Numbered from the stretch's first letter, positions 22,829 through 27,697 are shown. The stretch is 64,000 nucleotides of DNA from Octopus vulgaris (GCA_951406725.2 OX597818.1:71858001-71922000), one strand, 5' to 3'. The notes: generated by a model not told the origin, from the sequence alone. Made by a program: numbers and translations.

Positions 22829-22866
22829 CTGTCTGATGAACGGCAACGAGAAACTCAGAGTAACAG
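22829..22866 (+). ncRNA. Type I hammerhead ribozyme motif
   Basis: CTGT-CTGATGA-A-CG(GCAA)CG-A-GAAACTC(A)GAGTA-ACAG. Helix I CTGT/ACAG, helix III ACTC/GAGT, GUA site. Confidence 0.65.
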
Positions 22867-22989
22867 ATTTTGTTGAATTTTCTGCTGCTTAAAATAAAGT
22901 ATATATATATATATATATATATATATATGCATATATATATATATATATATATATATATATATATATATATATATATATATACATATATA

Positions 22990-23215
22990 TGTGTGCCTGT
23001 GTGTCTTTGTGTCTATGTTTGTCCCCTCACCATCGCTTGACAACCGATGCTGGTGTATTTATGTCCTTGTACCTCAGTGGCTCACCAAAAGACACCGATA
23101 GAATAAATACCTGGTTTACTAACAATAAGCGCTTGGGTTGATTTCTTCGATTAAAAAACCCTTTAAGGCGGGACTCCAGCATGGCTACAGTCAAATGACT
23201 GAAACAAGTAAAATA
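22990..23215 (+). mobile_element. SINE 3' portion (related copy 25120-25330; inverted copy ~27860-27990)
   Basis: TTTGTCCCC...GACAACCGATGCTGGTG...CGATAGAATAAATACC...CAGCATGGC..CAGTCAAATGACTGAAACAAGTAAAA. Confidence 0.7.
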
Positions 23216-23219
23216 ATAA

Positions 23220-23520
23220 ATTCAGATGAATATGGTACTTAAGTTAAAGGCACCAGAATTTAGTATGGTTTTATCCATATAATTCAAAATCGGGTGATTA
23301 TAATCAAAATAAGCAACAAGGATATCCAGAGGTAATGCAGTACGATCGTTTCATGCAACTCCATTTAATTGAACAAGGCAAATATTATATCAATTTAAAG
23401 TGTAGAGCAATCTTCAGCTGCACAAAAATATAGAATTTATTTTGCATTGTTCAATTAAATGGAGTCGCATGAAACGATCGTACTGCATCACCTCTGGATA
23501 TCCTTGTTGCTTATTTTGAT
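23220..23520 (-). mobile_element. Short hammerhead-bearing element with inverted arms (same family as 57305-57945)
   Basis: Arms 23303-23384 and 23438-23520. The segment 23220-23320 is the diverged reverse complement of 57845-57945. Confidence 0.75.
23335..23423 (-). ncRNA. Type I hammerhead ribozyme motif
   Basis: GTGCAG-CTGAAGA-TTGC...GCAT-GAAAC(GATC)GTA-CTGCAT. 6-bp helix I and a palindromic loop III. Confidence 0.7.
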
Positions 23521-23884
23521 ATATACATATATATATATATAAGTACAAAGTGAAATAGGGGTTATGAGTGTAACCCACTATGGGATATCAGTTATCCAAT
23601 ATACAGCTAGTGAAGTACCCAAAAGACTAATACATAAATGCTAATAATTGCAATGCAATTAGTTCATTTATTGTATTAGATGGGCGAAGGTAAAATATTT
23701 TACCTCAAAATCAAAATACAAATAAGAAAATGGAGGAACAGATTCCTTTCAATCATCAACTTACAGATAATACCAATTCAAATTATTTATTAACTACTTA
23801 AATAGGAACATCCAAATCCAACAGAATAAAACAATATACATCAATAATTAAGATAATACCATAAAAAGAATACATATAAAATGG

Positions 23885-24001
23885 ATCTTACAGCTGTTTC
23901 AGCCTGTAGATAAAGGTATCTCATTGTGCCTATATTAGTCATATGTATTGAGGTAATATGCACTTAAAAATGAGTATATATCTCAAGGCCTCGTCAGAGA
24001 T
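23885..24001 (-). ncRNA. Type I hammerhead ribozyme motif
   Basis: ATCT-CTGACGA-GGCCT...AGGCT-GAAAC(AGCT)GTA-AGAT. Confidence 0.7.
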
Positions 24002-24673
24002 TATAAAGTACAATTATAAAAATATAAAATGCAAATATAAATATGAAACAAAATGCACATACACAAGAATATATATACATATATATATATATATATATAT
24101 ATATATATATATATATATATATATATATATATATATATATATATATATATATATATATATAATATATGTAAGTATATATATAATAATATCCATACACATT
24201 AGGTTACTGATAATCAAATATTTATACTGGAGTATACAAATACATCCACATCAATGGGTACACATACAAAGTCCAAAGTTCATTATATTAAATTACCAAA
24301 ACTATTAATATTATTATTATTATTATCATTATTATTATTATTATTATTATTATTATTATTATTATTATTATTATTATTATTATTATTATTATTATCATTT
24401 ATAATAATAATACCAATAATGGAATATGTGCATTCTGCTATTCACAATGCATAATAGATGGAAAATACCACATAAGATATAGTATAATATAATATAGTGT
24501 AATATAATATAATATAATATAATATAATATAATATAATATAATATAATATAATATAATATATTGTATATTACATATATAATATAGTATAACCATATAGAG
24601 ACAGATGTTTATGGAAGATGCAAGCACATTAATTCAACAAATAATGTAACAAATAATGCCATTATATTCATGT

Positions 24674-24964
24674 ATCATACAGTCAAAATCGAAACTTCAG
24701 TCTTAATCTGCATACATATATATACACACAGGTAACAAATACATGTATATGCATATACATACATGCGTAAAAACATCAACTGATACATATACATATATAA
24801 ATATATTTTATCCTTTTACATCATACAAAAGATATATGCATGTACATATGTATTAGTTGATGTTTTTACGCATGTATGTATATGCATATACATGTATTTG
24901 TTACCTGTGTGTATATATATATGTATGCAGATTAAGACTGAAGTTTCGATTTTGACTGTATGAT
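24674..24964. repeat. ~117-bp inverted repeat
   Basis: Arms 24674-24790 and 24846-24964 are near-perfect reverse complements. Confidence 0.9.
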
Positions 24965-25978
24965 GTGTATGTATGTGGATGTGCTTGTGTATGTATATAT
25001 ATATATATATATATGTATGTATATATATGTGTATATGTATATATAGATATATAGATATACATATATATACATCTATGTCTGTATGCATTGCATTTGTCTA
25101 TGTGCACGTTTGCATGCATGTGTGTGTGTTCCTGTTAGATTTGTCCCCCGTCACTACCTGACAACTGGTGTTGGTTTGTTTACGTCCCATAACCAAGCGC
25201 TTTAGCAAAAGTGACTCGATAGAATAAATACCAGACTTTAATAAACATATATATTTGTTCGACAAAACTCTTCACGGTAATGCGACAGCATGGCCGCAGT
25301 CAAATAACTAGAATAAGTAAAGATAAAAATATAAAAGATAGCGATTAAAAAGTACTCAAGATACAACGGTAATAAATAATCTTAATCCGCTGCTTTAAAA
25401 ATATATTTATGAATAGAGAACAGGAATATCTTATAATAGTTGCATTAGTATTCAAAATATGGGATGTAATATGTATGCAGTAATAATATATATATGTATA
25501 TTAGTTTTGTACTGGTTGCCTTCGTGAAAATATAAAATGGCGTATTTTTTTCAGTTTATTAAGGATGAATATGTAATTAAAGATGAAAATAAAATATCTA
25601 ACTACCTGCTTGCGCGCGCGCGCACACATGCACATGCATACACTTCAAATCCAAAGAATATGATATATGTATGTATGCATGTATATACATATTATACATA
25701 CGCAAATATTCTTAGATTGTATTTCGAATACATATAACCTCTAAATGTGTAGAAGTTATAGTTATGCACTTTAAATTTATATAATATATATATATAGATT
25801 AGTGTTCACTTCCGGAATCTATCACTCTGTGAAAGTTTCTAGTTCGAATCACATGTGACTCGAGGTGCGCTGAAGATTTTTCTATTTTGAATATATTTGG
25901 TGTACTTAAGTCTGCTCGGGACTTGGTGCTTGCTTTTTCCATGGGTATGAGTAAGTATTTCATTTATATCTCGCGTAT

Positions 25979-26039
25979 TTGCCGCTGAAGAGGGAAAAAT
26001 TTCTTATGAATTAACCCCGAAATTGGACCAATACGGTAA
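25979..26039 (+). ncRNA. Type I hammerhead ribozyme motif
   Basis: TTGCCG-CTGAAGA-GGG...CCC-GAAATTGG(A)CCAATA-CGGTAA. Helices I, II and III all pair, with an AUA site. Confidence 0.7.
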
Positions 26040-26678
26040 TAACGAATTTTTTAGAGATTTCTATCGGTTTGTTTCGAGACGCATAAATTATGATGGTTAT
26101 CAACAATTTTTTGTTTCGGCATATTTGGCATTAGAATTTTTCTTCTGCCCTTATCTTGTAAATGATATATATATATATATATATATATATGTAGGTCCCG
26201 GGTTGATTCGGGGTTAACCACAGTAAATAAGGTACTCAATACATAGCAGAGTAAAATTAATTTATTATATAGAAGGAGCTTCTATGCATGTGAGTGTGTG
26301 TATGTATACATATATGTGTATGTGTAGATATGTATATGTATGTGTAAGTGTATATATATGTATATATATATGTGTGTGTATGTATGTGTGTATGTATATG
26401 TATATATGTTTGTATGCGTGTGTATATATGTATACATATGTGCATAGGTATAAGTGAGAATCTCCTTATTTACCTAAAACTCTATTCCCCCTTTTTTTTA
26501 TATATATATATTTTTATTTTTTTATTTTTTATTTATTCTTCTATCTAATTTAACACTGACTCCTTGACCACTCCCCCAAGTATGATATTTTGCGCTATGC
26601 CTACCCCCAAAAAATCCCCCACCAACACCCCTTTAAACCTGCCTAAATGTATAAATGCCAATACAATTCTTGTTAACT

Positions 26679-26729
26679 AGCTTCCTGAAGATTTCTCTTG
26701 AATGAAACAGTTCTAGTCCTGTAGAAGCT
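26679..26729 (+). ncRNA. Type I hammerhead ribozyme motif
   Basis: AGCTTC-CTGAAGA-TTTC(TCTT)GAAT-GAAACAG(ttctagtc)CTGTA-GAAGCT. Perfect 6-bp helix I and a GUA site. Confidence 0.7.
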
Positions 26730-26792
26730 CCTTCTATATAATAAATATATATATATATATATATATATATATATATATATATATATATATAT

Positions 26793-27048
26793 AACGGGAA
26801 GCTTTATGAAAATAGACAAAAGACGAAGGCAGGTTTACGAAAATAAACAAAAGACGAAGGCAGGTGGAATACAAACAAACAATTGTATTAGTATGGCGCT
26901 CAGGAAATATAAATAAAACAAGTCTTTAACGTTTCGAGCCTACGCTCTTCAACAGAAAAATACACAGAGAAAAAACACAGAAAGAAGGAGAGAAAAAAAA
27001 ATATGCGTGCAGAAGCTAGCGAATCAACATGGCGATCTGATTTCGGCC
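26793..27048 (-). mobile_element. PLE-type terminal fragment between (TA)n tracts
   Basis: TTT-CTGTTGA-A-GAGC(GTAG)GCTC-GAAACGTT-AAA. Similar to the 3' end of the PLE at 350-420. Confidence 0.65.
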
Positions 27049-27529
27049 ATATATATATATATATATATATATATATATATATATATATATATATATATAT
27101 ATGTGTGTGTGTGTGTGTGTGTGTGTGTGTGTGTGTGTGTGTGTGTGTAAAAATGCATTGTCTATTCATAGTAGCATGTATTGCACTACAACCATATACT
27201 TTCGGCTTCAGTCTCACTGTATAATCTTCTACTATAACTTCGGGCTGACTACTGCTTTCTGAGTGAATCCGATCGACAGAATCAGTGTGGAGGCCGTTGT
27301 ATGTATATATATATATATAGGAAATTTCGTAACTTTGCATGACTGAATTGGAATGCATGTCTAGTATGTGCTGGGAAGGGCATTATTGAATAAACTTACT
27401 GAGCCTTCAAACACGTCATTAAGTAACTCTTATTCTTTCCTCTGCACTACTTTGCGCTTGAGTGTGTGTGCGTGTGTGTGTGTGTCAGTGTGTCTGCGTG
27501 TGTATATGCAAATATATATATATATATAC

Positions 27530-27697
27530 ATAGTCAATTTAAACATGAAAAAAAGCAAGAAAAAACAACGCGAAGACGTGGAATAAGTACAGAGTTATTG
27601 GACGCTCAGGAAAGGAAAGAAAAGAAAGAGGATTCACTTTTCGAGCGGAGCTCTTCATCAGAAATATAGTAAAAGTGTAAAGAAGGGAAGACAGAGG
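27530..27697 (-). mobile_element. PLE-type terminal fragment between (TA)n tracts
   Basis: CTGATGA-A-GAGC(TCC)GCTC-GAAA at 27638-27661 with a degenerate cleavage site. Confidence 0.6.

Follow-up and report, generated by a model that had tools for sequence, protein, structure and literature searches.

Among the Penelope-like elements (PLEs), those of the Hydra clade are recognised by the protein motifs RWK, DKT, CxCx5C, CxxC and CxH, lack the CCHH motif and are generally <3 kb in length (Craig 2021, PMC8557442). One of the elements listed there, Hydra-1_Obim of Octopus bimaculoides, combines a preference for (TA)n with a hammerhead ribozyme, and this was the only paper relevant to ribozymes in our literature search for hammerheads in octopus and cephalopods. 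A curated octopus repeat annotation comprises 31 recently active PLE families, its main text leaving ribozymes unmentioned (Bonar 2026). The minimal hammerheads of the pseudo-long terminal repeats of PLEs are described as type I motifs whose helix I is short and whose helix III is palindromic and so fit for dimer formation (Cervera and de la Pena 2014, PMC4209133). For the Poseidon element of Anolis, two internal starts of reverse transcription, ends with or without a tail, insertion into an AT-rich target and a predominant use of uncleaved RNA as substrate were reported, and ribozyme mutants were without effect on insertion (Frangieh 2024, PMC11167929). Inverted 5'-truncated arms and optional tails have been described for PLEs as well (for the tail, Frangieh 2024), and retrozymes have been published as non-autonomous Penelope derivatives (Cervera and de la Pena 2020, PMC7229834; Li et al. 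2026, bioRxiv 10.64898/2026.07.22.740005). Here we analyse a dense cluster of type I hammerheads at positions 22829-27697 of a 64,000-nucleotide stretch of the Octopus vulgaris genome (GCA_951406725.2 OX597818.1:71858001-71922000), the whole of which is called the window below.

The region 21748-27697 very probably consists of seven independent insertions, among them five 3' ends, truncated or inverted, of protein-coding PLEs (four of Hydra type and one of Neptune type) and one likely non-autonomous unit of 465 bp, each with a hammerhead predicted to cut as a dimer. These are new families of known PLE clades with hammerheads of known type, plus one likely retrozyme, and not a new class of element. 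Since the kind is already known, the cluster itself adds little.

The motifs were searched for with a descriptor made up of a CUGANGA core, helix II, GAAA, helix III, an NUH site and a helix I of at least 4 bp. It found exactly five strict matches in 22829-27700, with predicted cuts after 22862, 23341, 23889, 26033 and 26723, and no other match scoring at least 10 in the 64 kb. Dinucleotide block shuffles of the region (1000) gave a mean of 0.001 matches and a maximum of 1, and 100 shuffles of the 64-kb window gave 0.04 matches at a score of at least 10; the descriptor was composed after the candidates were known, and these in-window figures are therefore optimistic. In an independent sample of 600 kb (60 tiles of 10 kb, placed at even intervals on 13 large contigs) there were 22 strict matches vs 0.5 in doublet shuffles. 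Freeing position 6 of the core added the motif of family F at 26923-26960 (-) and a related one at 351-386 (-). The motif of family G at approximately 27631-27665 (-) was missed by the descriptor scan. An earlier note on this DNA had listed five complete folds and two variants and had proposed shuffled sequence as the control; all seven stand as hammerhead motifs, the variants being the U6-bearing hammerhead of F and the damaged one of G, and the five strict folds stand far above the shuffles. The core CUGANGA with GAAA and NUH, the ends being joined in helix I, is found in families A to E, and F departs from it at position 6.

Chance matches in AT-rich, repeat-rich DNA can for practical purposes be dismissed as the origin of the motifs. 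It is true that Rfam returned no hammerhead on the window, either at the gathering cut-off or at E up to 10, and thus missed all seven, and that monomers folded no better than shuffled sequences; the latter values (z -2.0 to +0.4), however, support neither side. The shuffle controls refute a chance origin; the fixed position and sense of the motifs in PLE terminal repeats and the near identity of helices I and III of hammerhead A to those of a coral Hydra ribozyme also speak against it. The ribozyme lies in a terminal repeat, in sense orientation and 3' of the PLE open reading frame (ORF), in families A, B, C, E and F; for D and G no ORF was found. As sequence motifs the seven hammerheads are genuine, and each belongs to a separate dispersed family, whose 3' terminal repeat it marks.

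The full three-way junction was the minimum-energy structure of none of the seven motifs. The claim of the earlier note that helices I, II and III pair in each case needs correction for helix III, which is predicted to be unfolded in the monomer in four of the five strict motifs and stable there only as a duplex of two molecules. In all five it is a palindrome or near-palindrome. The computed self-duplex energies are -7.4 to -11.1 kcal/mol for A to D, which are unfolded as monomers, and -12.8 for E, which has a weak monomer hairpin (-1.4); for F the self-duplex amounts to just -1.7. The minimal hammerheads of the region are predicted to cut only as dimers. Helix sequences vary between the families, in motifs that had been chosen for pairing, and copies within a family are either identical (A and E) or show scattered decay. 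The ribozyme of A and that of E are each identical in 30 of 30 fetched copies (for E, the copy in the window included).

The features of the region are the following, UTR standing for untranslated region.

21748-22899 (+): family A insert, 5'-truncated, with the last 23 codons, 3' UTR and terminal repeat, no tail, (TA)n on both sides
22829-22866 (+): hammerhead A, helix I CUGU/ACAG, core CUGAUGA, short helix II, helix III ACUC-A-GAGU, GUA site
23220-23442 (-): family B, from an older element assigned to Hydra type, its 3' end and part of the tail
23335-23423 (-): hammerhead B, helix I GUGCAG/CUGCAU, U-U at 10.1/11.1, core halves 58 nt apart, helix III the palindrome ACGAUCGU, GUA site
23441-23520 (+): inverted, 5'-truncated B arm that runs from the ribozyme's 3' half as far as the end lacking a tail, with (TA)n behind it (inverted-repeat detection)
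23540-24853 (-): family C, 3' part with tail of an element assigned to the Hydra clade
23885-24001 (-): hammerhead C, helix I AUCU/AGAU, helix II GGCCU/AGGCU, which encloses 90 nt, helix III the palindrome ACAGCUGU, GUA site
24827-24964 (+): inverted arm at the 5' junction of the C insert (inverted-repeat detection)
25780-26163 (+): family D, most of one head-to-tail unit of approximately 465 bp without ORF
25979-26039 (+): hammerhead D, helix I UUGCCG/CGGUAA, helix II GGG(G)/CCCC, helix III AUUGG-A-CCAAU, AUA site
26191-26284 (-): inverted E arm, the post-cleavage part with a tail of approximately 70 nt, pointing into the (TA)n that ends D
26283-26744 (+): family E, tail-less 3' end of a young element assigned to the Hydra clade
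26679-26729 (+): hammerhead E, helix I AGCUUC/GAAGCU, U-U at 10.1/11.1, helix III ACAG/CUGU with an 8-nt loop, GUA site
26794-27049 (-): family F, 3' end with tail of a PLE assigned to Neptune type, tail-to-tail with E in one (TA)n tract
26923-26960 (-): hammerhead F, core CUGUUGA (U6), extra A before helix II GAGC/GCUC, helix III ACGU, GUU site
27532-27697 (-): family G, 3' end of an older family, F-like minimal hammerhead at approximately 27631-27665, damaged copy

For each family 30 loci (numbered with L below) were fetched, which are the closest copies and not a random sample. The first-look candidates, 40 of which were scored in each family, numbered 737 (A), 643 (B), 1509 (C), 2745 (D), 1432 (E), 1722 (F) and 2180 (G), and the identity of the best copies was 100% (A), 93-96% (B), 90-95% (C), 94-96% (D), 99-100% (E), 97-99% (F) and 88-92% (G).

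By its protein motifs and copies, family A is a young autonomous Hydra-clade PLE with an intact ORF. Its insert in the window (1,152 bp, 97-99% identical to copies elsewhere) begins within the final 23 codons of the ORF. A complete unit, 3.36 kb in length, is found at L065 (4772-8293), where a terminal repeat with the hammerhead, a 70-nt tail, an ORF of 711 aa, a 3' UTR of 1.1 kb and a second terminal repeat with the hammerhead follow each other. The protein consists of reverse transcriptase (RT) followed by a C-terminal GIY-YIG endonuclease and carries RRLRWK, DKT, CxCx5C, CxxC and CxH and no CCHH; Pfam gave no match on this intact ORF, and weak GIY-YIG matches for F (E 0.01) and for an ORF in L235. 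The reading frame was fully open in 2 of the 12 long loci fetched. Copies often form inverted pairs a few kb apart, and 12 such loci have an RT/GIY-YIG ORF between the arms. The hammerhead occurs in 3,422 exact copies in the genome and a 35-nt RT core in 210, ribozyme ends outnumbering RT-bearing copies 16:1. Helix I (CUGU/ACAG) and the arms of helix III (ACUC/GAGU) are those of the coral Hydra-2_aMil (Craig 2021). A separate abundant family sharing the tail of A, which had been suspected from a depth peak, turned out to consist of very short inserts of A together with a related subfamily. The latter is present as short inserts in the window (41945-42014, +) and in L089, L138, L237 and L274, with the core CCGACGA (C at position 4) and a fully paired helix II.

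The ends of B, C and E also belong to Hydra-clade elements as far as their motifs and contiguity tell, B being older and of Hydra type and E young. Their 3' UTRs are long (approximately 2.6-3.3 kb). The E copies elsewhere are 99-100% identical, the tail junction having 2,242 exact genome matches, and the 3' UTR (approximately 3.3 kb) is microsatellite-rich and of low complexity. The E ORF (RIRWR, DKT, CxCx5C, CxxC, CxH) is contiguous with the E end in L226 and L230, the inverted arm being present in L223, and its protein is 42% identical to that of A. The C insert of approximately 1.3 kb has microsatellites (24069-24590) inside its 3' UTR; the C ORF (DKT, CxCx5C, CxxC, CxH) is tied to the C end through L234 and L240, where the RWK region was not seen. 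The motif sets of E and C were assembled from separate copies. In long B copies, with a 3' UTR of approximately 2.6 kb, the C-terminus of an endonuclease lies upstream in the same sense (L400 and L406) and is contiguous through L396 and L407. Another ORF, in L125 and L235, was rejected as the parent of C; it ends in a ribozyme-like end and (TA)n of its own and belongs to another Hydra element nested in the C 3' UTR. This further Hydra-type element (L235, 2789-5327) is an inverted pair with a CCGAAGA core in its ribozyme-like end, lying in a TA tract of that UTR. Two Hydra-type ORFs (L224, 3026-4933, -; L234, 3960-5687, -) carry long asparagine-rich insertions in the thumb/linker region, apparently by in-frame expansion of (AAT)n. 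A decayed inverted pair of B ends is found in the window at 57305-57416 (-) and 57749-57866 (+), approximately 73% identical to the copy at 23335.

Families A, B, C and E share several features with the Hydra clade (Craig 2021): a single ORF of RT and C-terminal GIY-YIG, a hammerhead of canonical type I close to the 3' end, insertion into (TA)n, copies that are inverted and 5'-truncated, and an optional tail. They are, however, other families than Hydra-1_Obim, because their ribozymes differ from the one listed for that element. The tails here are 70-100 nt vs 30-40 in Hydra (Craig 2021), the core halves of B and C are 58-90 nt apart, unlike in the Hydra ribozymes listed there, and A differs from published Hydra elements in being very young, with thousands of identical ends.

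Family F is of Neptune type by motif. In L237 and L239 an RT and GIY-YIG ORF lies upstream, with KPADKG, a Cx4CxxC linker (CSRPRCRTC) and a C-C...H endonuclease (CVSCSLC..YIGQT..EH), resembling the DKG motif, the CX2-5CxxC linker and the CCHH-type GIY-YIG of the Neptune clade, in which it is placed by motif only. It differs from that clade in the U6 of its ribozyme core. The CUGUUGA core was present in 29 of 30 fetched copies, and U6 in 7 of 7 related motifs of the tiles and the window that share the helix II loop of F; U6 is therefore regarded as a family trait. No published description of a U6 hammerhead core was found in the literature covered. An older copy of the F family, at 351-386 (-) in the window, has an F-type minimal hammerhead with the core CUGUCGA and a GUA site. 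In the window copy of G, C15.2 is changed to A and one base of helix I is lost. The cleavage site of the family is mostly GUG (G17), sometimes GUU, and some copies extend at least 800 bp upstream. An ORF upstream of G in L216 and L241 was unlinked and was rejected as the parent. The hammerheads of the region are like those of PLE pseudo-long terminal repeats (Cervera and de la Pena 2014) in being of type I with a short helix I and a palindromic, dimer-suited helix III, in the extra nucleotide between A9 and G10.1 (F and G), and in occurring mostly as single motifs from truncated elements and as close opposite-strand pairs. The U6 of F and the frequent G17 of G do not appear in the parts of that paper covered here.

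Family D is likely a non-autonomous retrozyme-like unit. The tail of the unit directly precedes D in 27 of 29 other copies, and the spacing from ribozyme to ribozyme is 448-470 bp in four tandem pairs. As in animal non-LTR retrozymes (LTR, long terminal repeat), the D unit is short, rich in AT and arranged head to tail, carries a single type I hammerhead and lacks an ORF. Its length of approximately 465 bp is slightly above the 150-450 bp of Cervera and de la Pena 2020 and inside the 51-972 bp range of Li et al. 2026. D is made up of dispersed partial tandems with inverted arms, whereas non-LTR retrozymes form long arrays. Pieces of PLE ORFs near the D copies L046, L059 and L060 were considered as the parent and rejected, not being common to the copies.

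An alternative is that all or most of the carriers are independent non-autonomous retrozymes, cut by their ribozymes, circularised and copied in trans by a Penelope RT. Besides D itself, whose copies can be longer than one unit, the 16:1 excess of short ORF-less A inserts over RT-bearing copies fits such an origin, as do the recurrent head-to-head mini-inserts (a 16-nt gap separates the partners in 5 pairs within the first 100 matches listed), the lack of a parent ORF found for G and the published derivation of retrozymes from PLEs. In five of the seven families (A, B, C, E and F), however, the ends are contiguous with RT/endonuclease ORFs in longer copies, the A insert of the window even starts inside the ORF, and a short tandem unit was not seen in any of these five, which are thus not retrozymes. 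For A, C, E and F as families the retrozyme origin is refuted, and for the carriers as a whole it is improbable. The earlier note had proposed distinct families linked to Penelope-like elements, and this fits the data: seven dispersed families with helix sequences of their own, five of whose ends lead upstream to RT/endonuclease or endonuclease ORFs. Its suggestion that they are non-autonomous suits D and is wrong for A, B, C, E and F, which are ends of protein-coding PLEs; no ORF of G was found. Nor are all carriers ORF-less segments of 250-550 bp bounded by (TA)n, given the 1,152-bp A insert that starts in its ORF and the C insert of approximately 1.3 kb with (TA)n inside. The proposed preference for (TA)n, in turn, is borne out by the flanks: of 90 copies, 83 have TA repeats after their 3' end (A 28/30, E 28/30, F 27/30, the sets of E and F including the copies of the window) vs 3.9% of random positions, and for B and C the association is seen in the distance table.

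The reading of the region as a series of PLE ends and one likely non-autonomous unit also agrees with its layout. Each family has two 3' ends, with and without the tail (approximately 0 and 71 nt for A, 9 and 80 for E, -2 and 98 for B), and forms inverted 5'-truncated arms, those of B, C and E being present in the window. Counted from the cut site, the two ends of A lie at 37 and approximately 107 nt. D, E and F lie end to end with (TA)n alone between them, and so do B and C, an order which reads as serial insertion into TA tracts. Nested insertion is directly visible in L235, and according to a review PLEs tend to insert beside earlier copies (Weinberg 2019). The setting is a microsatellite-rich window with LINE and Helitron fragments in a genome of 2.8 Gb. 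In the tiles the 22 strict hits, a few of which look doubtful, never exceeded two per tile, and TA repeats were found within 250 nt downstream of 15 of the 20 motifs away from a tile edge vs 22% of the background. Approximately half of the 22 have 40-90 nt between the core halves and represent many further families; descriptors with short loops would miss them. Scaled from the 600 kb, the genome holds an estimated 103,000 motifs (64,000-155,000), about one per 27 kb, compared with the 2,000-9,000 given in Cervera and de la Pena 2014 with other descriptors. The order of 1e5 type I hammerheads thus apparently present is undetected by Rfam, many of them having long inserts in helix II.

Five motifs in 4.87 kb vs 0.18 expected correspond to P of approximately 1.3e-6 per window, and none of the 60 tiles held more than two. 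Such density could be taken to mean that the cluster is a selected, functional ribozyme array processing a host transcript, a possibility we regard as very remote. With a background of about one motif per 27 kb, roughly one equally dense cluster per genome is expected (approximately 0.75 such windows per 2.8 Gb by Poisson, before any overdispersion of the kind seen in TA tracts, which number 0-16 per 10 kb). Moreover, the motifs lie on both strands and in families of very different age, the A and E inserts have dispersed copies with 97-100% identity, G is present as a damaged copy, and no host gene was recognised among the 10 window ORFs scanned.

The 5' ends of copies bear on the template of insertion. 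They were mapped in copies chosen by the sequence downstream of the cut site alone, the E set being the first 30 exact matches on C1. No copy began at the cleavage site (A 0/30, E 0/30, D 0/29). In A, 20 of 30 ends lie 34-52 nt upstream of the cut, helix I beginning at 34, and in E 13 of 30 lie 33-45 nt upstream, helix I beginning at 45; those of D are scattered over 6-437 nt. At many of the A and E ends the sequence is inverted head to head, with a CTAG or AGCT palindrome in the centre, and some non-inverted copies end there too. Transcription start, the splice-acceptor-like CTAG and microhomology of the palindrome are possible causes of the pile-up. Since no mapped copy begins at the cut site, we infer that the copied RNA was uncleaved or re-ligated. 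The anatomy of the copies matches the behaviour of Poseidon, an element of another clade; there the data are biochemical and here they come from genomic sequence only.

By analogy with these systems, the RT/GIY-YIG protein would nick (TA)n and reverse transcription would start inside the RNA, a little 3' of the ribozyme and at either of two positions; this may give the two observed 3' ends with or without the 70-100-nt tail. Head-to-head joining of two cDNAs would produce the inverted arms. Copying of an uncleaved RNA that begins just upstream of the ribozyme would leave short ribozyme cassettes, and read-through or circular templates could account for the long copies. Cleavage would take place in the dimer, as in published systems. 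If the cDNAs are mostly short, the genome would receive mainly the ribozyme end without the ORF, mimicking a non-autonomous family. We propose tentatively, as a possibility on which doubt and support are nearly balanced, that the approximately 100,000 hammerheads stem in this way from dozens of PLE families, uncleaved RNA with a 5' end just upstream being copied, that the commonest insertion is a cassette of 80-250 bp and that the ribozyme is dispensable for insertion.

Several points weigh against these readings. In A (3.36 kb), B, C and E the unit exceeds the length general in Hydra, which is a tendency and not diagnostic. The clade assignments are motif-based, and the A protein was compared with published Hydra proteins by eye. 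The parent match of B, a decayed endonuclease end with 33-41% identity (E 3e-5 to 2e-4), is the weakest of the links, and the CxCx5C linker motif was not seen in the part recovered. D copies share no ORF and no D parent ORF was found; for G, one upstream walk met none within approximately 800 bp of low-complexity sequence. The inverted E arm of the window stops within 2 nt of the cut site, contrary to an uncleaved template. Finally, the flanks of B, C, D, F and G copies show no excess of ribozymes from other families (17 in 419 kb, 0.41 vs 0.37 per 10 kb, p=0.44; A and E were omitted as their bodies fill the flanks, and three overlapping loci and those of the window were dropped). Serial insertion into TA tracts explains the layout of this locus and is by the flank test not a general trend of the genome; the accumulation at this locus is extreme yet within expectation, and no mutual attraction of families in general was detected.

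The avoidance of the cut by the 5' ends and their accumulation at the 5' edge of the ribozyme in A and E provide support from within a genome for the insertion of uncleaved RNA observed in vitro, and bear on the role of the Penelope hammerhead. If the proposal above is true, a young Neptune-type family with a fixed change of A6 to U in the core would also suggest that the ribozyme is dispensable for insertion. Family A, very young, of the Hydra clade and with its ORF open, offers a candidate for the biochemistry so far done on a Poseidon element. Under the same proposal, the 711-aa Hydra element of L065, its 3,400 identical ribozymes and a possible passenger of 465 bp would make up the first active Hydra-clade system for the role of the hammerhead.

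Elsewhere in the window, 91-nt arms with 99% complementarity face each other across (TA)35 at 21000-21250; the repeat tract is central, unlike in PLE inserts. Two low-scoring descriptor matches with a G-U-rich helix I, at 6959-7082 (-) and 46261-46384 (+), lie in repeated sequence and are probably false. A common short interspersed repeat, which we take to be an octopus-type SINE (short interspersed nuclear element), is present in two copies (22990-23219 and approximately 25100-25330), the tail of B ending inside the first. Fragments of LINEs (long interspersed nuclear elements) are found at 9133-10143 (+), 44703-45386 (+), 29216-30436 (-) and 61312-62910 (+) and comprise two restriction-like endonuclease C-termini after (AAT)n, one RT and one endonuclease-RT. 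A fragment of a Helitron Pif1 helicase at 50334-51056 contains an exact tandem duplication of 177 bp.

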